The notes beneath the pieces were generated by a model. That model made no database searches. It had not been told where the DNA came from and saw only the letters and a list, made by a program, of their open reading frames with translations. A stretch of DNA of 64,000 bases from Candidatus Micrarchaeia archaeon. Its GTDB lineage: Archaea > Micrarchaeota > Micrarchaeia > Anstonellales > Bilamarchaeaceae. The stretch is from contig JAXLQI010000001.1 of NCBI GenBank assembly GCA_046331685.1, positions 192,047 through 256,046 of the forward strand, given 5' to 3'. Below are positions 394-10,772 of the stretch, piece by piece; the stretch's first letter is position 1, and every line of letters starts with the position of its first letter. The position numbers and the translations under genes are program-made.

Positions 394-1359
394 ATGGCAC
401 AGCCAGCTCAGCAGCAGAAGACAGAGGAGCCTGTCACAGGGACCGCTTTCCTTCAAAGCATCCGGGGGTTGTCCCCTGCCCAGATCGAGACGAGGGTATA
501 CCAGCAGGTGGTCGCCGGCAACATCCCTGATTTCATGCGCAGGAATTTCTTCAGGCCCATTACAGTGGAGATGCAGACCGGAGGGCGGAGGATACAGGCG
601 ACTTTCCGTGTCGCTTCCGATTATATCGCCATCGGCACGAACGGAGACTATGTCCGGGTCCCGCTCAACCCCCTCACTGCGCAACGGATCGCGGCCCACC
701 TCGGATGCGTGCTCCCGACGGCAAGGATCGTGGACCTCATAGATGCCGAATCCAAAAGGACCGGCAGCTACCTCCCGTTCCACGCCGCCCCTTCGATAGC
801 AAGGAGGGTGACGGACCCGGATTCAGGAAAACCAGTCTCGGCCCGCTGGAACACTCAGAAATACGGCTATTACGAAGGCACATGGATGAGGACGATAGAC
901 TTCTTCGCCGAACAGAGCGTGATGGTGGACGAGAGTAGGTCCAAGCTCGCTGACCCGAACGGTGTGCTCTCCGGGCATAAAAAGGATGTTGTCTATCACC
1001 CCGAGGCCGAGGCCAGGCACAACGTGGCTATATACCACGATGGGATCCAGGGCCTCAACTATGTGACACATGAGAACACCTACCAGGATTACAGCCATGG
1101 AGTGCGCCTGATCGACTCCAATGTTTCGGTGACCATAACTGAACCGGACGGGAGCCAGAGGACCGAGACGATAAGCATGGCAACCATCCTCAGCGGGAGC
1201 GGAAATGCGCCGTACAACAAGATGTACCAGCTTTTCAGCCCGATAACGATGGACATCAGCCGGATCTATCAGCCGGCCCCCCAGGCAAGGGCTGCGCCGA
1301 GGCCCGCCCGCCAGGCGGTGCCAAGAAAAAAGACGATCGATCTCGGGGAACTCAATTGA
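394..1359 (+). CDS. Hypothetical protein (321 aa), family not recognised; paralog of the upstream partial ORF
   Basis: Long ORF with ordinary amino-acid composition. The overlapping ORFs in other frames are Arg/Pro/His-rich shadows. No signal peptide or TM segment seen. Confidence 0.7.
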   Translation: MAQPAQQQKTEEPVTGTAFLQSIRGLSPAQIETRVYQQVVAGNIPDFMRRNFFRPITVEMQTGGRRIQATFRVASDYIAIGTNGDYVRVPLNPLTAQRIAAHLGCVLPTARIVDLIDAESKRTGSYLPFHAAPSIARRVTDPDSGKPVSARWNTQKYGYYEGTWMRTIDFFAEQSVMVDESRSKLADPNGVLSGHKKDVVYHPEAEARHNVAIYHDGIQGLNYVTHENTYQDYSHGVRLIDSNVSVTITEPDGSQRTETISMATILSGSGNAPYNKMYQLFSPITMDISRIYQPAPQARAAPRPARQAVPRKKTIDLGELN

Positions 1360-1406
1360 GTTGTCTAAGATGGTCATAAACGATTAAATAACCTATCCAA
1401 CACTAT

Positions 1407-2258
1407 ATGGTAATGTTGAAATATCCTCATGCCAGGAGGACAGCTGCCATATGCGCTTTGGCCGTATTCTCCTGCTCCAAGCCCGAGCCAGACAATAATA
1501 CCTCGCTCGTCCTTCCATCCAGCAGGTCCGCAGCCCCTACAGTGATGGCGGCTCCACCGGCCCCTGAAGGCTATGCAACGGTTGCGCTCCAGTCGCCCCG
1601 GATCGTGGTCCTCGGCGACTCGATCATGCATTACAGCGATGAGCTGGTTTCGAGGCGGGTCCAGGAAGTCATTTCGTCCGATGCCGGCGCCGTCAGCGTC
1701 AAAGGCGTGACCAAAGGTGGCCAGCTGATAAACGGCTGGATCGGATCGCAATTCGACAGATATGTGACCGACCCGGACAATAATATCATCGTCCTCCAGG
1801 GGGGAGTGAACGACATCGGATGGTACGGCAAGACCGGCCACACCGCTACCCGGGACGAGGCATTCGACAAGCTCATCAAGAGATTCGGCGACATGGTCCA
1901 GAAAGCGATCGACAACCGGAAAGTCATCGTCCTCGTCACAGTCACACCCTGGAAAGGGCAGCCGCACTGGAACGCGGTCGGCCAGGAGAACAGCGAGAAG
2001 CTCAATTCCTGGATGAAAGAGCAAGCGCGACGCCCCGGCGTTTACCTTGCAGACACCTATTCGGCCCTAGTGACCAAGGACCCGGGATGCGAAAGCGAAA
2101 AAGATACCCTCGCCCGGGGATACCGAGGTGTGGATGTCCAGCACACCAATGATGCCGGGCGCAAGGTCATCGGCGAGGTCATAGCGCAATCCCTGGGTTT
2201 CCCCGTCCCTTCATTCACCGCTCCCGAGAAAACGAAAGCGAATGACCCCTGCAAGTGA
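1407..2258 (+). CDS. SGNH/GDSL-family hydrolase, predicted secreted lipoprotein
   Basis: Blocks VVLGDSIMHY (GDS), GGVNDIG (GxND) and DVQHTNDAG (DxxH). N-terminal hydrophobic segment ends in the lipobox-like AVFSC. Confidence 0.75.
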   Translation: MVMLKYPHARRTAAICALAVFSCSKPEPDNNTSLVLPSSRSAAPTVMAAPPAPEGYATVALQSPRIVVLGDSIMHYSDELVSRRVQEVISSDAGAVSVKGVTKGGQLINGWIGSQFDRYVTDPDNNIIVLQGGVNDIGWYGKTGHTATRDEAFDKLIKRFGDMVQKAIDNRKVIVLVTVTPWKGQPHWNAVGQENSEKLNSWMKEQARRPGVYLADTYSALVTKDPGCESEKDTLARGYRGVDVQHTNDAGRKVIGEVIAQSLGFPVPSFTAPEKTKANDPCK

Positions 2259-2263
2259 TCCTT

Positions 2264-2605
2264 ATGCCGATACACAAGAAACCCGGCGACCTGTTGGTCC
2301 TGCGCCACCCGGCCCTGGACAGATTCAAGGCCACCCCTGAAGAGATCCTTCTCGCGGTGATAATGAACCACGTCCTCCGCAAAATCGAGAAGGATTTGCA
2401 CTTCAACAGCCTTGACAAGGAGGTTTTGTTCGACACTGCCGAACTCATCGCTAGTCGGGTCCTGGAAAGGAAAGGGGAACCCCATCCGAAATCCCTGGAT
2501 ACCGTAGCCGATGAGGAGATCGATAAGCTGAAGAGGAAGGAAGCCGGGGATTTCGCGAAAGCATGGCAGGGCCTTTTTCCAGCCCCGCCGAAAAAAGGCG
2601 AGTGA
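2264..2605 (+). CDS. Small hypothetical protein, family A (113 aa)
   Basis: ATG at 2264; the ORF track starts at GTG 2255, overlapping the upstream stop. Clear paralogy to the disrupted copy at 2836..3157. Confidence 0.5.
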   Translation: MPIHKKPGDLLVLRHPALDRFKATPEEILLAVIMNHVLRKIEKDLHFNSLDKEVLFDTAELIASRVLERKGEPHPKSLDTVADEEIDKLKRKEAGDFAKAWQGLFPAPPKKGE

Positions 2606-2606
2606 G

Positions 2607-2825
2607 ATGGCCAACCCAGCATTTCCAAGAATCGACCGGGAGCTCCGCGCCTTCCTGGAACACCTGGTCTCCAGGGACAAGCGCCTTCCCGACGGGGAAT
2701 CTAAGAGGCAGGTGGTCCTCGCCACCCTGCGTAGATTCAAGGATGCCGGCCAGACCGGAGCGACCTTGGCCGATATCGTCGGCGAAGAAGCTGAGAAGAT
2801 GGCAAAACGGCTTGCTGGCCGATAA
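2607..2825 (+). CDS. Small hypothetical protein (72 aa)
   Basis: Starts 1 nt after the stop of 2264..2605, giving operon-like packing. No family recognised. Confidence 0.4.
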   Translation: MANPAFPRIDRELRAFLEHLVSRDKRLPDGESKRQVVLATLRRFKDAGQTGATLADIVGEEAEKMAKRLAGR

Positions 2826-2835
2826 AGGTATCCTC

Positions 2836-3157
2836 ATGCCAACATTCAGAAACGTCACACTCATCGGCCCGCCAGAGCTGGCCAGGTTCAAGGACCGCGA
2901 GGTCGAGGAAATCCGCATGGCGGATCTCATCGCGCACGTCATGCGCAAGCACCGATCCGAATTTTGAAGGTTTTGGCCGCCGCACCCTTTTCGAGGCTGC
3001 GAATTTGATAGCAAAGGCAATATACTCGCGCAAGATGCCGGCAAAGTCATTGGATCAGGTCTCGAGCGAGGAGATAGACCGGCTCAAGGCGAAAGAAAGA
3101 GCAGATTTCGCCATAATCTCTGAAAACCTCTTCGGCAGAAAGAAAGAGGATAGTTAG
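2836..3157 (+). pseudogene. Frameshifted paralog of family A (2264..2605)
   Basis: The N-terminal 43 codons (MPTFRNVTLIGPPELARFKDREVEEI..RKH) end at a stop at 2965-2967. The +1 frame continues NFEGFGRRTLFEAANLIA..KSLDQVSSEEIDRLKAKERADF to a stop at 3155-3157. Both parts align to 2264..2605, and the switch lies near 2950-2960. Confidence 0.6.
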
Positions 3158-3187
3158 ATTGTTATAGAAAGAGGAAACAAAGGTAGC

Positions 3188-3197
3188 TTTAAATATA
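3188..3197 (+). promoter_or_regulatory. Candidate archaeal TATA box (tttaaatata) upstream of 3270..3527
   Basis: AT-rich TATA-like octamer in the intergenic region, but about 75 nt from the ATG, so the assignment is uncertain. Confidence 0.3.
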
Positions 3198-3269
3198 TGG
3201 ACCGCGCAATCAATTAGATATTGATATGAAAGAAAGAAACTTGCCCCCAGATGGGGTTGAGTGATTCCT

Positions 3270-3527
3270 ATGCAAAAAAAATTATCCGGATTGGAACGAA
3301 AGAGAGACGACGGACCGAGGATCCGCCTCACGGAGATGGACCCACAATCAGGCATACCGAATATCCTGTTCGTCGGAACTGGAGTTAACCTGAAGACCGG
3401 CAAGAAGATCTCCTTCAAAGTGCCTGATACGATCTCGAAAAAAGGCCTCGAGGCGCTCGCCACCAATGTCAGGATGGATAACCTCTATCACACCTATCTG
3501 GTGAACGAGCTCCAGGAACTTGACTGA
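3270..3527 (+). CDS. Small hypothetical protein, family C (85 aa)
   Basis: The start MQKKLSG mirrors MQKTLFSG of 4671..5141. Shared block: GKKISFKVPDTISKKGLEALATNV versus DKMIKFKVPESISEKGLETFWKNV. Confidence 0.5.
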   Translation: MQKKLSGLERKRDDGPRIRLTEMDPQSGIPNILFVGTGVNLKTGKKISFKVPDTISKKGLEALATNVRMDNLYHTYLVNELQELD

Positions 3528-3539
3528 TTCTTTTAATCT

Positions 3540-3574
3540 ATTTGAATTTCTAATAGTATCCTAGTTAGTGGATA
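3540..3574 (+). repeat. Conserved intergenic motif, copy 1 (atttgaatttctaatagtatcctagttagtggata)
   Basis: Shares the identical 14-mer gaatttctaatagt (3544-3557) and about 28 of 35 positions with 4497..4532. Confidence 0.7.
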
Positions 3575-3622
3575 TGCTTGTTGTTGAAAAGGTTTAAATA
3601 AGATAAATGGGTATGACTAGTT

Positions 3623-3901
3623 ATGGTCCTCAAAAAAATATCACCTGATGAAGCCAGAAAACCGGTTCCTCCACGTACAGTGCAGCCGCTGACCGATGTG
3701 GTCAGTGTCCCTTTCGAAATGCCATTGCGGACTGAAGACCTGAAACACCTGCTCCCCAGCGATCTCCTTTCGGTGTCAAAGCCCTGGTACGTATCGATCC
3801 CGCCAGGAAAGCAGGGCCTGGCCATGTTCGCCTTGTCAAAGAAAGCGTTCACGGTCAAAGAGACCGACGACCGTTTCGTCATCCATCCGAAAATAGATTA
3901 G
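3623..3901 (+). CDS. Small hypothetical protein (92 aa)
   Basis: ORF preceded by ggtttaaataag (TATA-like, 3591-3602). No family recognised. Confidence 0.45.
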   Translation: MVLKKISPDEARKPVPPRTVQPLTDVVSVPFEMPLRTEDLKHLLPSDLLSVSKPWYVSIPPGKQGLAMFALSKKAFTVKETDDRFVIHPKID

Positions 3902-3910
3902 AGACAAGAT

Positions 3911-4219
3911 ATGAATCCATATAAAAACTTCAAAGGCCGTGCATTTTTTCACGCCGTAATCAATCCGCACTGGCCTGATCCATTGGTATGCATGCGCTAC
4001 GGTCCAGCCTCGTTTCCCAAGGAGCTCCTTCGGCTTCATCTAGAGCAACTGAAGAAAGGCAAAAGCCCGATCGCCGAGAGCGTCCTTCTGCAGAACCTCG
4101 ATAAAGCGAAAATGATGATCGGCGACAAGGAAGTCCTTGACATATTGTATGCCCTTTCTGATGTGAGCCCCCACCAAAGCGTGAGAGACAAGGCAAGGGA
4201 AATCCTGTCCGGATTATAA
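3911..4219 (+). CDS. Small hypothetical protein (102 aa), helical-looking
   Basis: Starts 9 nt after the previous stop. No family recognised. Confidence 0.45.
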   Translation: MNPYKNFKGRAFFHAVINPHWPDPLVCMRYGPASFPKELLRLHLEQLKKGKSPIAESVLLQNLDKAKMMIGDKEVLDILYALSDVSPHQSVRDKAREILSGL

Positions 4220-4289
4220 TATTCAAATTGCCGCGTTGGTAACGCAACATTCTTATATCTGAAAAGGGCAATCAAAACCGGGGAAACAT

Positions 4290-4475
4290 ATGGTCTTGTA
4301 CGAACTGCTCACCAAGGTCCAGGAGATTTCCGGCGAGTGGAAGATCGTCAGGTTCTGGACCGGCAAATACGGGATCGTCAATCCGCAAGGGGATGTAGTT
4401 GATCCTCTTGATGCTCCGATAGGGGCACGCATACTTCTGGTCAAGTATCAGAGGGGATACTCGAAAAAGAAATGA
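4290..4475 (+). CDS. Small hypothetical protein (61 aa)
   Basis: Same-strand ORF in the array. No family recognised. Confidence 0.35.
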   Translation: MVLYELLTKVQEISGEWKIVRFWTGKYGIVNPQGDVVDPLDAPIGARILLVKYQRGYSKKK

Positions 4476-4496
4476 AATTTTAGAACTATTGGAGAT

Positions 4497-4532
4497 ATTT
4501 AGAATTTCTAATAGTCTTTTAGTTTATGGATT
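4497..4532 (+). repeat. Conserved intergenic motif, copy 2 (atttagaatttctaatagtcttttagtttatggatt)
   Basis: Identical 14-mer gaatttctaatagt at 4502-4515. Direct-repeat partner of 3540..3574. Confidence 0.7.
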
Positions 4533-4630
4533 AAATTCATTTTTCAGGGCAGTTTTGGTTTGGGACGCATACCTAGAGGCTCCCAGTTTATTGTTTATAT
4601 TGTGTTGATAAATGGATTTTCATAGAAAAC

Positions 4631-4638
4631 TTTATATA
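4631..4638 (+). promoter_or_regulatory. Candidate TATA box (tttatata) for 4671..5141
   Basis: Lies 33-40 nt upstream of the ATG. A ggtgatgg SD-like element sits at 4660-4667. Confidence 0.4.
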
Positions 4639-4670
4639 TGTGTTATGAGTAATAAGTCTGGTGATGGTTA

Positions 4671-5141
4671 ATGCAAAAAACTCTTTTCAGTGGTGAAGGT
4701 CTCAACAGAAAAAACGACAAGATGATAAAGTTTAAAGTTCCTGAATCAATCTCAGAAAAAGGTCTTGAAACCTTTTGGAAAAATGTCGACGTGCATTTTA
4801 AAGATGGTCAATGGTACCCACCATTAAAACCGGATCCGCTTTCTCCCAGATTTGATCCAGACTCCTGCGGCTATTGCGGGGATGGGGTGATTTCCGAAAT
4901 TGGTCGGACGGATCTTTCCAAAGGCGATACAAGTTCAACCGATAAATTCAAGGAACGGGATTCTGGCGATGTCGGTTCGATTTCATATCTCCCGCCGGTA
5001 TGGCTCATAAAATCCCGGGTTGAATCTTTAATTAGAGTTCAGCGAGTACAAAATAGGCTGGATAAAATCCGTAAAGAAGGGGAATCCTCTAAGGAAACCG
5101 GCTTAAGCGATGAACATAAAGACGAGGGCCATAAAAAATAG
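4671..5141 (+). CDS. Hypothetical protein, family C paralog with a C-terminal extension (156 aa)
   Basis: The N-terminal 45 aa align to 3270..3527. The remainder is unrecognised (CGYCGDG motif, charged tail). Confidence 0.5.
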   Translation: MQKTLFSGEGLNRKNDKMIKFKVPESISEKGLETFWKNVDVHFKDGQWYPPLKPDPLSPRFDPDSCGYCGDGVISEIGRTDLSKGDTSSTDKFKERDSGDVGSISYLPPVWLIKSRVESLIRVQRVQNRLDKIRKEGESSKETGLSDEHKDEGHKK

Positions 5142-5373
5142 TTTACTATCATAATAGTGAACCTATTTTCTTTTTCTAAACCATATAAGTAAACCTTCTT
5201 TTAGAGCGCAAACACCTTTTTTTCTCCATGGTTCACTATATCAATATTGATTGGAAGATCCTGACCGCGCAATACGGCTTCCAGCTATAAAAGTGGGCAA
5301 AAGAATGGAAAATACACCTTTTGCTACTATTTTGGTTTACTATTTTGAGGTATATTTGAAGTTGGTTTACTGC
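5140..5373. repeat. Cluster of six iteron-like GGTTYACTAT 10-mers in both orientations
   Basis: Copies at 5140-5149 (+), 5153-5162 (-), 5185-5195 (-), 5230-5239 (+), 5334-5343 (+) and 5364-5373 (+). The first two form an inverted pair right at the stop codon of 4671..5141. Confidence 0.6.
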
Positions 5374-6224
5374 TAAAATGGTTTTGCTCCATAACGGCAA
5401 CTACGATTTGATGGATTTCTATAATTATCTCAAGGCAAAACTTGTCTAGGAGTGGTCCGTTATAATGTGAGAATATTCTTTCCCCATTTTCATCTCCTAA
5501 GTCTTTTCTTAAAGAATCGAGACGGTTCTGTTCTTCAGCAGACAAATCATTTCGCTCTAAACGTTTGGCTAATGTTTCTTGGTATAATTTACCATGTCTT
5601 CCATGTGTCGCCAAAGATAATTTATCATAAAGTCTTCTAGCTTGGTCGCGGGTTTTATTTTCCCATGGAACTTCGTTAAATCTAGGTCCAATTGGATCGA
5701 GCTTTACGTCCTCTCTAATGTGCTGTTGAAATCTTATTAGTAGCTCCAGAATTGTCCTGGATGCGGATAAAACTTGAAAATGAAAAAATGGAATTAGTTC
5801 TGGTGATAATTAGGTCTTCTTCCATTAGCTTACAAAGAAAATCTTGATTCCCAAAACCACGATTCGCGAAGCGATGTACAGTTAACGTAAAATCCAGCCG
5901 TTTTACTGTCTTTTCAATCTCTTTTATCTTTTCGAATATCTTTTTAACCTTACTATTTAATCCCCATACCCTTATAGGAACTCCCGGGCGTCATCCCGTG
6001 CTTTTGACGGCGATGCTTCCTCCGCAATTCACAGACAATCTTGGACGGCACGTTATGATTGAAGTGACAAACGCACCTAGTGCTGCTCGCAAAATACGAC
6101 CGTGATAATGGTCAGAATTTTGATCAGCACCTTTGGTTTTTTACGCGAGGAAGCGGAAAAGGTCGATATCGTTTTGATTTTTCCGTTTGCTTCGAACAAT
6201 GTCAATTCTTTGCGGAATCACGGT
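5327..6224 (-). pseudogene. Decayed coding remnants in two frames (unknown protein; a tyrosine-recombinase-like remnant is possible but unproven)
   Basis: One minus frame is open from 6224 to 5715 apart from two in-frame stops (TAA after ..FRFLA, TGA after ..AVKSTG). A second frame is open from 5808 to 5327 but has no ATG until near its end. The segment KKIFEKIKE..LTVHRFANRGFG loosely resembles the HxLRH region of integrases. Confidence 0.35.
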
Positions 6225-6225
6225 C

Positions 6226-6666
6226 TCAAAACGCTGGCGATGTTTTTCCAAGTTTAAACAAGAAAGAACGTGAAACTCCATGCAATGATGCGTAAACTCC
6301 GCTTTTTTGTGTTCCGTTCAATAAGTTCCAATCGCTTTGGTTTCTCCATTCTTTGATAATAAAATCCGACGGCGTCTCGATGAACTTTATCAATTCGGAT
6401 ATAAAATATCGATAAGCATCGATTAGAGCTATCGGAATCTCATTTTCTTCGTATACCCTTTTTCTATACTCCCAATTTTTCTTGACCGGTTCAATCTCCC
6501 TATTGCTCCCCCAAACTTCAACGTATATCCCTAATTCGGGCAAGTAAAAATCCGGAGTCCATACCCTCGGTCTACCCCCATCCTTGAGAAAAACTGGCCT
6601 CTCGTATTCACATTTGATCCCTAATCCTTTAAGGAACTCCTCGACTTTTTCTTCCGCAGCGTACAT
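6226..6666 (-). CDS. PD-(D/E)xK / Vsr-DUF559-like nuclease-fold protein (tentative)
   Basis: The pattern EEFLKGLGI..E..RVWTPDFYLPELGIYVEVWG resembles the D...E-x-(K) core of restriction-endonuclease-like folds. ATG at 6666. A different frame upstream (..LDTIKKKLAENTDLDVVIIGKDKR) hints at 5' decay. Confidence 0.4.
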   Translation of the reverse strand: MYAAEEKVEEFLKGLGIKCEYERPVFLKDGGRPRVWTPDFYLPELGIYVEVWGSNREIEPVKKNWEYRKRVYEENEIPIALIDAYRYFISELIKFIETPSDFIIKEWRNQSDWNLLNGTQKSGVYASLHGVSRSFLFKLGKTSPAF

Positions 6667-6826
6667 TTCAACACCCAAAATTCCCAATCTCTTTTGTCTT
6701 TTCCAATTATGACAACATCCAGGTCTGTGTTTTCTGCAAGCTTCTTCTTAATCGTATCCAACTCAACCGTCCACTGATGCTAAAAATAAATAAATCCGCC
6801 AGTCGAATAAGCTGCGGAGGGATATA

Positions 6827-7432
6827 ATGAGAAAACTTGTCGTTTTGGAGTTCATGACGCTCGATGGCGTCATTCAGGCGCCCGGAGGACCGAAAGAGGA
6901 TACTAGCGGAGGGTTCAAGTACGGAGGATGGAGCTTCGGCCACGGGGACGATGCCGTCGGAGAGGAGATGGGCAAGCAGATGGCCGAGCCGTTTGACCTC
7001 CTTTTGGGCAGGAAAACCTACGATATTTTCGCCGCTTACTGGCCGACTGCCAAATCGGATATAGAAATAGCGAAAAAATTCAACAAATGCACAAAATATG
7101 TCGCTTCAAAGACTCTCAAGAAACTGGACTGGAAGAACTCCGTCCTCCTGAAAGATGCCGTCAAGGAGGTAAAAAAGCTGAAAGAAGGCAACGGCCCGGA
7201 GCTCCAGGTGTATGGCAGCGGAAATTTCGTCCAGACGTTATTGAAGAACGACCTCGTGGATGAGTTGCGCCTCAAGATCTACCCCATAACTTTGGGCAAA
7301 GGGAAGAAGCTGTTCGCCGAAGGGACTATCCCCGCAGCATTCAAGCTCATTTACAGCAAAGTGACCCCGAGCGGAGTCTTAATAGCCACGTACAAAAGAG
7401 AAGGCGAAGTGAAGACCGGCTCCTTCGGCTAG
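6827..7432 (+). CDS. Dihydrofolate reductase-like protein (RibD C-terminal domain family)
   Basis: [70 protein letters not shown] is typical of RibD_C/YwjB-type proteins. Confidence 0.85.
   Translation: MRKLVVLEFMTLDGVIQAPGGPKEDTSGGFKYGGWSFGHGDDAVGEEMGKQMAEPFDLLLGRKTYDIFAAYWPTAKSDIEIAKKFNKCTKYVASKTLKKLDWKNSVLLKDAVKEVKKLKEGNGPELQVYGSGNFVQTLLKNDLVDELRLKIYPITLGKGKKLFAEGTIPAAFKLIYSKVTPSGVLIATYKREGEVKTGSFG
7196..7421 (+). repeat. Direct repeat copy 1 (3' part of the DHFR-like gene) matching 8467..8692
   Basis: Hand alignment is gap-free over 226 nt with 37 mismatches (~84% identity), mostly at third codon positions. Confidence 0.8.
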
Positions 7433-8457: not shown

Positions 8458-8694
8458 GTGGATGGACCGGAGCTCCAGGTAAACGGCAGTGGAAACTTCG
8501 TCCAAACCTTGCTGAAAAACGATTTTGTGGACGAGTTGCGCCTCAATATCTACCCCATTACCCTGGGCCAGGGAAAGAAGCTGTTCGCCGAAGGGAAAAT
8601 CCCCGCGGCATTCAAGCTCATTTACAGCAAAGTGACCCCAAGTGGTGTAACCTTAGCCACATACAAAAGGGGAGGTAAAGTGAAGACCGGCTAG
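8458..8694 (+). pseudogene. Orphan 3' fragment of a DHFR-like (RibD_C) gene
   Basis: The 78 codons align to the last ~80 residues of 6827..7432 ([57 protein letters not shown]). The N-terminal two thirds of the gene are absent. Confidence 0.8.
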
Positions 8695-9293: not shown

Positions 9294-9743
9294 ATGAGCA
9301 AGATCCTCTTTTTGGTCGGGATGGCGATTCTCCTGTCGGGCTGCTGCAATATCACCGGCGGCACAGGCGGCGCTAAGGGCGAAAACTTGAACTCATGCCT
9401 TGCGGATTGCGAGAGAAATTCGGTAGGACAAAAAGGCCTGGCCGGCCTTGGCTCGTGCAAGGCTCTCTGCTACGATCATGAGGCAAGAGCGACAGGCGAT
9501 GCCGCCCAATGCGACGCGATAAACTCTCTCGGGAACGTCAGCATGATGGGAGAGGATACGTCCTTCTGGTTCAACGGGTGCGTTGGCGATGTCGCAGAGG
9601 ATAAAAAGGACGTCACGGTCTGCGGCAGGCTTCCGGTAGGTCCGAGAAGGGATGCATGCATCATGAATGTGTACTATGCCACCAAGAACCCGTCCGACTG
9701 CGATGGCCTCAGCGATCCGAGGGAGAAAAGCGTCTGCCAATAG
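9294..9743 (+). CDS. Cys-rich lipoprotein, family L1
   Basis: Lipobox LLSGC. The Cys framework LNSCLA.C...C..CY..A.AT.D...CD...GCV.DVA..K.D..C...RD.CI..V..TKNP..CD...DP..K..C is shared with 10332..10772. Confidence 0.65.
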   Translation: MSKILFLVGMAILLSGCCNITGGTGGAKGENLNSCLADCERNSVGQKGLAGLGSCKALCYDHEARATGDAAQCDAINSLGNVSMMGEDTSFWFNGCVGDVAEDKKDVTVCGRLPVGPRRDACIMNVYYATKNPSDCDGLSDPREKSVCQ

Positions 9744-10331: not shown

Positions 10332-10772
10332 TCAAGAGGCGTTGCTGATGCAGGCATTCTTCGTGCTCGGATCTTTGATGCTGTCGCAGGCCGCAGGGTT
10401 CTTTGTATTCTTAGCCACATCCAGGATGCAGTAGTCCCTGTTGGACGAGACCTTCATCTTGTCGCATAACGGAGCATCGTTCTTCCCTTTGGCCACATCC
10501 CAGACGCAGCCGTCATAAAGGTCGGTGACGTTCTCCCTCAGCCTTGGCAGCATCTTATCGCAGTAGCTCACGTCCATCGTCGCCTCGGCGGCATTGGAAT
10601 AGCATACCTGCTCGCAGCCGATCTCCAGGTTGACATTCGGATCCGGGCAGTGCGCCAGGCAGGAGTTCAGATCTGCATCCACACCTGAAGGGGATCCGCC
10701 TGAAGGAGCCTTGGAGGCACAGCCTGCCAGCAAAACAGCCACCACCAAAATCGTAACCAGATTTCTCATCAA
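10332..10772 (-). CDS. Cys-rich lipoprotein, family L1 paralog
   Basis: Lipobox LLAGC. Same Cys framework as 9294..9743. Confidence 0.65.
   Translation of the reverse strand: MMRNLVTILVVAVLLAGCASKAPSGGSPSGVDADLNSCLAHCPDPNVNLEIGCEQVCYSNAAEATMDVSYCDKMLPRLRENVTDLYDGCVWDVAKGKNDAPLCDKMKVSSNRDYCILDVAKNTKNPAACDSIKDPSTKNACISNAS

Follow-up and report, generated by a model that had tools for sequence, protein, structure and literature searches.

A lineage-restricted cluster of small modular genes in a Micrarchaeia chromosome

A cluster of small genes was studied at positions 2255-5141 of a 64,000-nucleotide stretch of contig JAXLQI010000001.1, from a Micrarchaeia archaeon; the whole stretch is called the window here. 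The cluster holds eight small plus-strand genes and one frameshifted copy. It represents, in this genome, a co-directional neighbourhood that is restricted to the lineage and lies between a u321/GDSL block and a RibD_C/Pyr_excise/TspO block. One of its families, family C, consists of an N-terminal beta-hairpin-helix module of ~40 residues followed by C-terminal tails that are unrelated to each other, and this module is a previously undescribed protein module. Judging from genomic context, we give a probability of about 40% to the reading that the locus is a cassette-type diversifying locus of the conflict or immunity kind.

The neighbourhood in related genomes

The locus was compared by tblastn and all-against-all clustering with five independent related contigs: L001 (Ca. 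Bilamarchaeum), L002/L009/L010 (Micrarchaeia bin_281), L012 (a Micrarchaeota metagenome-assembled genome, MAG), L013 (an ENA scaffold) and L014. Family C is present in all five, with three copies in L013 and two each in L001 and L014. Family O7 was found in L001, L009, L011 and L014, family A in L009 and L014, family B in L012 and L013, and family O6 in L001 and L013. For A, B, O5, O6 and O7, these results come from the fetched loci, genome and viral scans and exact-sequence look-up only, so that their wider distribution is under-sampled. A gene matching Imm5_like (PF21805, E 2e-28; 99 bits against a cutoff of 25) stands 0-2 genes from C in L001, L009/L010, L012, L013 and L014.

The flanks are shared as well. 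Upstream, u321 paralogs occur in L001, L009, L013 and L014, and the GDSL gene also in L001 and L009. Downstream, the RibD_C gene occurs in L009 and L013, and in L013 it is followed by Pyr_excise, TspO and two more genes, at 64-88% identity to the window. Between L013 and the window, identity is 88% for RibD_C, 88% for Pyr_excise, 81% for TspO and 75% for B.

The gene order in the window is u321, u321, GDSL, A, B, A-psi (the frameshifted copy), C, O5, O6, O7, C. In L009 it is ... u321, F6, u321, F23, GDSL, F24, F25, F26, F12, F27, A, Grx, C, O7, x, Imm5, x, F11 ... RibD_C, and in L013 it is F6, u321, O6-like, F12, B (TrmB), Grx, C, C, Imm5, C ... RibD_C. Families A, B, C, O6 and O7, along with several others, are also present in the related genomes, but shuffled, duplicated, lost or decayed. 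Since relatives share both the families and the flanks, this is a lineage-conserved, internally fluid chromosomal region and not a private insertion. The initial annotation of this DNA had named a lack of homologs and of conserved synteny as what would speak against its proposal of an accessory system; homologs of A, B, C, O6 and O7 are in fact syntenic in five Micrarchaeia contigs.

Family C

Two members of family C lie in the window, both on the plus strand. C1 (3270-3527, 85 amino acids, aa) has an N-terminal extension, the module at residues ~31-69 and a conserved C-terminal helix, YH.YLV.ELQEL. C2 (4671-5141, 156 aa, the same protein as P0031) begins its module at residue 3 and carries a unique tail. 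The two share a block at 57% identity over 35 aa (E 3e-11), which agrees with the initial annotation that the family occurs twice, but the "shared start MQK.L.G" noted with it is non-homologous. The start of C2 aligns with residue ~30 of C1, and on this alignment the common MQK start is a coincidence. The GC content at third codon positions (GC3) is 0.38 in C2 versus 0.65 in C1.

A profile search of 5.8 billion clusters returned 29 proteins, including the window's C1, and an exhaustive HMMER scan of 1.84 billion representatives returned 53 clusters only (E < 1e-3). The module match, LF.G.G.N.KTGK.I.F.VP..IS.KGLE.L.KNV, begins within the first 13 residues in 51 of these 53 clusters. Members range from 64 to 322 aa in length, with tails unrelated to one another. 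They fall into a C1-type of ~80 aa, with the N-terminal extension and a conserved tail helix, and a C2-type, with the module from residue ~3 and a variable tail. C1 has 22 close homologs at 50-75% identity, and C1-type genes are found in 3 of 185,579 GTDB species, all Micrarchaeia.

The structure of C1 was predicted with AlphaFold2 from a 30-sequence alignment, with a predicted local distance difference test score (pLDDT) of ~95 for residues 31-85. The model has strands at 32-40 and 46-52, a helix at 57-66, a strand at 67-69 and a helix at 72-84, and the module packs with the C-terminal helix into a single confident domain. Foldseek found no match to this model at E < 0.1 in the PDB or BFVD, and PDB profile searches for families A, B, C and O7 and for u321 returned no match either. 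A Pfam scan of 51 family C members found no domain anywhere, nor did one of C2 singly. Among the proteins seen in the module scan, P0030 (199 aa) has two C modules, and P0038 (5174 aa) has 11 weak matched stretches.

A proposed cassette-end motif

The initial annotation had described a conserved motif bracketing three genes (O5, O6 and O7), and this was confirmed, with a length of 33 nt. The two window copies, at 3541-3573 and 4499-4531 on the plus strand, are 82% identical over 33 nt. Copy 1 (TTTGAATTTCTAATAGT...) lies 14 nt after the C1 stop codon. Copy 2 (TTAGAATTTCTAATAGT) lies 24 nt after the O7 stop codon and runs on to 4575 as the conserved block TAAA.CC.TTTTTCAGGGCAGTTTTG, which blastn and alignment show to be common to L013 4409, L009 12288 and L012 1176. 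The motif is TTAGAA-T-TTCTAATA, in which the core TTAGAA-T-TTCTAA is a 6-1-6 palindrome that continues with TA. The core spans ~15-17 nt and is written TWRGAATTTCTAATA. Two core matches were observed in the window, versus 0.05 expected.

Twelve copies were found over seven loci (the window and six related), all on the gene (plus) strand. Eleven of them overlap a stop codon or begin at most 24 nt past one; in L001, for example, the motif lies 7 nt past the O7 stop. The twelfth copy (L013 4409) is inside the read-through C-terminal end of an uncalled Imm5-like open reading frame (ORF). The genes that precede a copy are C1, C2-type, O7, Imm5-like, F11 and a 147-aa gene. The motif was not found in 39 viral loci, nor in non-syntenic loci outside the lineage. 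The Imm5-like gene just mentioned (L013 4015-4464) is uncalled in the source annotation and lies between two motif copies, of which the second is inside its read-through 3' end.

Because the position of the motif is fixed to upstream stops and not to downstream starts, a promoter is less likely than a signal at the cassette end, with a role in 3' regulation, termination or recombination. In relatives O7 comes immediately after C1 and the motif after O7, and the window has the order C1-motif-O5-O6-O7-motif. It therefore appears that a motif-O5-O6 unit was inserted between C1 and O7, or that the motif was duplicated.

Coding status and the other genes of the cluster

The nine-ORF plus-strand array that had been described is real: A1, B, A2 (in two pieces), C1, O5, O6, O7 and C2. 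The operon-like spacing claimed for it applies to GDSL-A1-B-A2 and O5-O6 only, where the gaps are 6 nt (GDSL to A1), 1 nt (A1 to B), 10 nt (B to A2) and 9 nt (O5 to O6). It does not apply elsewhere: the remaining genes are 70-195 nt apart, with TATA-like boxes of their own in these spacers, so there are several transcription units and not one operon. C1, O5, O7 and C2 are each preceded by an AT-rich spacer with a TATA-like box, and a Shine-Dalgarno-like GGTGA/GGGGA is mostly present before C1, O7 and C2. A scan for bacterial-type promoters and terminators, signals not relevant to archaea, showed no enrichment.

The plus-strand ORFs have the coding-type composition GC1 > GC2 < GC3. In C1, O7 and B, divergence from relatives is highest at codon position 3 and lowest at position 2 (for B, mismatches per codon position are 0.17/0.14/0.62), which indicates protein-level selection. 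The source record's gene caller called A1, B, both A2 pieces, C1, O7 and C2. Two long minus-strand ORFs, 2057-2740 and 2451-3050, were ruled out as true genes by their codon-position composition and by the homologs of the plus-strand frames. The predicted products of the cluster are soluble and mostly basic, with an isoelectric point (pI) of 9-10. None of the nine ORFs matched Pfam, PHROGs, PADLOC or NCBIfam; the earlier statement that no family was recognisable is therefore borne out for Pfam, PHROGs and PADLOC.

A1 (2264-2605, plus strand, 113 aa, family A) is predicted to be all-helical and soluble. Its homologs are L009 9228-9503 and L014 5370-5639 (33-37% identity), and no match was found in Pfam, PHROG, PADLOC or PDB. 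A2 (2836-2967 and 3005-3157, plus strand, 43 and 50 aa) is the second family A copy, with one frameshift near 2953-2965. Removing one base there gives a 107-aa product that is 45% identical to A1 over 91 residues (E 1e-18), and this alignment upholds the claim that family A is present twice. A2 is a frameshifted copy of family A, either a pseudogene or a sequencing error. B (2607-2825, plus strand, 72 aa, pI 10.1, helical) is the most conserved small protein of the set, at 75% identity to L013 2466-2675 and 85% to L012 3-143. It has no family match, and the PDB profile search returned none.

O5 (3623-3901, plus strand, 92 aa) is a putative gene with coding-like composition, and the TATA-like box at -30 suggests that it is probably leaderless. 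No homolog was found in any fetched locus, and the exact product is missing from the protein collection; it is the sole ORF of the array without any homolog. O6 (3911-4219, plus strand, 102 aa, family F9) has a conserved C-terminal helical motif, D.E.LDILYALSD.SP...VR.KAR, and its homologs are L001 6932-7240 (40%) and the C-terminus of L013 1608-2018. A relationship of O6 to Imm5_like was ruled out by hhalign, and its comparison with the tail of P0052 gave a weak hint only (probability 12%).

O7 (4290-4475, plus strand, 61 aa, family F3) comes directly after C1 in relatives. It is 66-71% identical to its counterparts in L001, L009 and L011 and to two tandem copies in L014, and it occurs in 2 of 185,579 GTDB species, all Micrarchaeia. 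A single-sequence model (pLDDT 74) shows a hairpin and a helix, and Foldseek found no match to it in the PDB at E < 0.1. O7 was also considered as a relative of the C module and ruled out by hhalign.

The low-GC block and a conserved non-coding element

The GC drop reported by the initial annotation is present but uneven. Positions 2255-3000 have host-like GC (55-60%), 3000-4475 are patchy owing to AT-rich spacers, and a trough of 30-42% covers 4476-6826, with the O7 stop and the RibD_C start as its exact limits. This low-GC block holds C2, a frameshifted minus-strand gene and a PD-(D/E)xK nuclease gene. It is the sole sub-block that looks like a recent import, and it probably is one. Relatives hold other genes in this slot, for example a PIN gene and a 551-aa protein in L013, and a Fic gene in L012.

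The nuclease gene (6226-6687, minus strand, 153 aa) was recognised by its PD-(D/E)xK signature (PADLOC PDC-S69 1.4e-5, HEAT_CxxC_PD-DEXK 3.7e-5). The decayed minus-strand gene runs from 5327 to ~6100 with a frame shift near 5790, which leaves a 95-aa ORF at 5327-5614, and it has weak PADLOC hints only (E ~0.01). A 19-nt tandem repeat of 1.9 copies lies at 5909-5944. A 23-nt repeat (5915-5937 vs 6685-6707, 91% identity) marks the 5' ends of the block's two minus-strand genes.

An unstranded non-coding DNA element at 5156-5371 is conserved at 77-80% nucleotide identity in five Micrarchaeia genomes. It is always intergenic and always between the plus-strand small-gene cluster and variable minus-strand genes. 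It contains AGTRAACC twice on the plus strand and three times on the minus strand, a palindrome (ATCAATATTGAT) and an invariant CCTGACCGCGCAATA. Five of the window's seven AGTRAACC matches are inside the element, versus 1.4 expected for the whole window, so the "adjacent iterons" of the initial annotation correspond to five clustered octamers.

Two other identities for the element were rejected. As a structured RNA it shows one compensatory pair and fold z-scores of -1.35 and -0.43, and a conserved micro-ORF was ruled out from the alignment. Rfam gave no match at E <= 10 across 4400-5500. As there is no Rfam match, covariation or unusual folding energy, the element is probably a protein-binding DNA site (a boundary, a recombination site or origin-like). 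An exact 11-mer, GACCGCGCAAT, lies at 3200-3210, shortly after the TATA-like box that precedes C1, and recurs at 5263-5273 in the conserved element. In L001, a similar GAACCGCGCG follows the TATA box upstream of its cluster.

Functional interpretation

The reading that we favour is a diversifying cassette array of inter-genomic conflict, which would be either a polymorphic effector/immunity locus or a poly-immunity locus. It is suggested by the Imm5_like genes near C in relatives, by the nuclease, PIN and Fic genes in the adjacent slot, and by tandem paralogs, one decayed copy and a constant head with exchangeable tails. Turnover is visible in the frameshifted A2, in the tandem O7 of L014 and in the multiple copies of C in L013, L001 and L014. 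The adjoining variable slot has PIN and Fic genes in relatives and the PD-(D/E)xK nuclease gene in the window. The initial annotation had proposed a "diversifying defence/addiction-type locus", of which the descriptive half stands: the locus is uncharacterised, modular, duplicated, partly decayed and variable between relatives. The functional half is a best guess only.

In such an array, exchangeable tails would be presented on the C module, which would serve as an unchanging handle for docking, oligomerisation or delivery. The small helical proteins encoded beside it, which are Imm5-like in relatives and perhaps A, B and O6 in the window, would be cognate binders or neutralisers. The motif would mark cassette ends, where it would either be the substrate on which recombination exchanges units or act as a common 3' signal for regulation or termination. 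In the window genome, one exchange may have put motif-O5-O6 between C1 and O7, and a low-GC import may have added C2 and the nuclease.

Several observations weigh against this conflict or immunity reading. The 64-kb window has no Imm5-like gene: no ORF matched, and tblastn of Imm5-like proteins was negative. No C-family tail among the 51 members scanned matches a known toxin or Pfam domain. The C module has no signal peptide or hydrophobic N-terminus, and no secretion genes were seen in the loci, although delivery might use a novel route. C1-type tails are conserved and not variable, distant C-module genes (L006-L008) occur in unrelated contexts, and O5 is without any homolog. The motif follows only some genes and could be a mere terminator or operator, and no recombinase was found among the window ORFs scanned, which cover part of the window only.

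An explanation without any conflict function, which we consider possible but unlikely, is that the cluster is a regulon of small nucleic-acid-binding or regulatory proteins, with the palindromic motif and the AGTRAACC element as operators bound by B, C1 or O7. Most products are small, soluble and basic (pI 9-10), the 6-1-6 palindrome is of the type bound by dimeric regulators, and the L013 cluster includes a TrmB-family gene. The 11-mer GACCGCGCAAT, present both beside the C1 TATA-like box and inside the 5156-5371 element, would fit shared operators, as would the failure of that element to fold as RNA. However, no DNA-binding fold was recognised, and the distance of the motif is fixed to the upstream stop and not to downstream promoters. 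The strict strand specificity of the motif is unusual for an operator, and a regulon leaves the variable tails and copy-number turnover unexplained.

A more speculative version of the cassette idea is rather improbable. The locus might be an unrecognised archaeal cassette-exchange system, in which recombination machinery would shuffle small genes by acting on the short palindromic end-motif and perhaps on the conserved AGTRAACC element at the cluster boundary. The C module might then be an N-terminal handle specific to DPANN archaea, through which interchangeable effector tails would be delivered or displayed in symbiont-host or symbiont-competitor contact.

The initial annotation had also proposed a plasmid- or virus-derived element. 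This was not supported, and the array as cargo of an inserted mobile element is now improbable and considered for 4476-6826 only; for 2255-4475 it is largely refuted. In its favour are the GC drop, the many ORFs without homologs, the repeats and the pseudogene, as well as the foreign composition of 4476-6826 and the 39 relatives of the neighbouring u321 on IMG/VR contigs. Against it, the families of the cluster recur between matching chromosomal flanks in five Micrarchaeia contigs, and 2255-3000 has host-like GC. A blastn search of phage and plasmid records gave no match, scans of IMG/VR found no member of families A, B, C or O7, and none of these four stands alongside the viral u321 homologs. 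No integrase, replication, capsid or other virion gene was found among the cluster ORFs and the other window ORFs scanned, and no tRNA target was found.

It is equally improbable that the genes are type II toxin-antitoxin (TA) pairs, that is, addiction pairs such as C1-O7. C1 and O7 are both small and are adjacent in L001, L009 and L011, and PIN and Fic genes are nearby in relatives. But 52-76 nt separate C1 from O7 in relatives, two genes stand between them in the window, and in L012 and L013 there is no O7 next to C. With its 54-61 aa, O7 would also be short for a toxin. Pfam and PADLOC gave no match to a TA or defence family, and the folds match no TA component.

An integron-like array of the type called a cluster of attC sites lacking integron-integrases (CALIN), in which a small gene and its 3' motif would form a cassette moved by a site-specific recombinase, is a long shot. 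The attC sites of integrons are 57-141 nt long, with R''-L''...L'-R' inverted repeats and the core sites RYYYAAC / GTTRRRY. The motif here has a core of ~15-17 nt (33 nt between the window copies) and no GTTRRRY or R''/R' core sites; moreover, only some genes carry it, and the cassettes have their own TATA-like boxes. The small ORFs do resemble such an array in being co-directional, uncharacterised and shuffled between genomes, with a conserved imperfect palindrome directly 3' of the stop codons of different genes, and integrons and CALINs do exist in Archaea (PMC9668308). No integrase was seen among the ORFs scanned, which cover part of the window, and CALINs are by definition without IntI (PMC9668308). 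Micrarchaeota is unmentioned in the text of the archaeal integron survey, with 0 occurrences (PMC9668308).

Finally, the family C proteins are very improbable as precursors of the ribosomally synthesised and post-translationally modified peptide (RiPP) kind, with the module as leader and the variable C-terminus as core peptide: the conserved N-terminus, variable C-terminus and multiple paralogs fit, and the distant member in L008 follows what is presumably a B12-type radical SAM gene (a label read from the ORF translation), but the module and C-terminal helix form one confident domain in the C1 model, tails reach 280 aa, and no maturation enzyme is present in the window or the five syntenic relatives.

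Genomic setting and flanking genes

Its housekeeping genes show that the window is archaeal and chromosomal, and it comes from a Micrarchaeia (DPANN) archaeon. The rest of the window encodes an A-type ATP synthase, type III RuBisCO, SufB, HMG-CoA reductase, glutamate dehydrogenase and others, and this remaining DNA has 58-61% GC and a GC3 of ~0.8. Its nearest relatives are Ca. Bilamarchaeum and other Micrarchaeia (lineage Micrarchaeia, Anstonellales). ARAGORN found no tRNA within the window, and Rfam at gathering threshold had no match across the whole window.

The upstream anchor (394-2258, plus strand) consists of u321 at 394-1359 and a GDSL-type lipoprotein at 1407-2258, and it is conserved in relatives. 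The top relatives of the lipoprotein, which lies beside A1, are in Candidatus Bilamarchaeum sp. and a Micrarchaeia MAG (57-59% identity). A truncated u321 paralog at 47-361 on the plus strand is cut off by the window edge. Tandem u321 paralogs also occur in those relatives whose sequence extends this far (L001, L009, L013 and L014), where the small lipoprotein F6 usually precedes u321. The family has the invariant motifs DYLAIG, LPT and DYSHG.R and no Pfam, PHROG or PDB match. Its 39 IMG/VR relatives are on contigs of up to 485 kb, each as a stand-alone ORF of ~250 aa, and no small family of the cluster accompanies them.

The RibD_C-domain gene at 6827-7432 is the first gene downstream of the low-GC block. 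A fragment copy of it (78 aa, 8458-8694) has 83% nucleotide and 87% protein identity to 6827-7432, and the gene and its fragment flank Pyr_excise and TspO. Further downstream, 9294-9743 (plus strand) and 10332-10772 (minus strand) are inverted paralogs of an unknown 146-149-aa family, at 35% identity, that flank a DJ-1/PfpI gene.

Significance and comparison with known systems

Micrarchaeia and similar DPANN archaea rely on other cells, and the majority of their genes lack a known function. The locus provides several testable objects: five lineage-restricted protein families; an undescribed N-terminal module, predicted to fold confidently, with exchangeable tails; a cassette-end DNA motif; and a strongly conserved non-coding element that bounds a variable slot gathering nuclease, PIN and Fic genes. 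If the conflict or immunity reading is true, the locus would be a compact model of how ultra-small archaea diversify their interaction or defence proteins. Should that reading prove wrong, clean targets for structural genomics would still be gained in these families.

The cluster differs from polymorphic toxin systems in several respects. It shows no recognisable toxin, secretion or trafficking domain or processing peptidase, the window is without an Imm5-like gene, and the host is archaeal (DPANN). Polymorphic toxins are typically large multidomain proteins, unlike the tiny C proteins (64-322 aa). Polymorphic systems are defined by conserved N-termini and recombining C-terminal cassettes, and poly-immunity loci can occur without toxins (PMC3482391). 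The cluster resembles the polymorphic toxin and poly-immunity loci of Zhang et al. 2012 (PMC3482391) in its conserved N-terminal part with exchangeable C-terminal parts, in its tandem paralogs, fast content turnover and copy decay, and, in relatives, in the Imm5-like immunity-family gene beside C genes. With poly-immunity loci it also shares an array of small helical proteins without an obvious toxin.

Integron arrays and CALINs, including archaeal ones (PMC9668308), are likewise co-directional series of small unknown genes with imperfect palindrome ends and an order that varies between genomes. They are unlike the cluster in that its short motif lacks attC architecture and follows a subset of genes, its genes have their own promoters, and no integrase was found. 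A further comparison is with hypervariable conflict-type gene modules of archaeal "dark matter", such as the Thermococcales Ig-protein module (PMC8416519). That module belongs to other families, and the anchor of the present cluster is u321 paralogs and a GDSL lipoprotein, not a large Ig-domain protein. The Thermococcales module is alike in being lineage-restricted, with conserved anchors and unique combinations of small downstream genes, and in that a self/non-self or conflict role is read from context alone.

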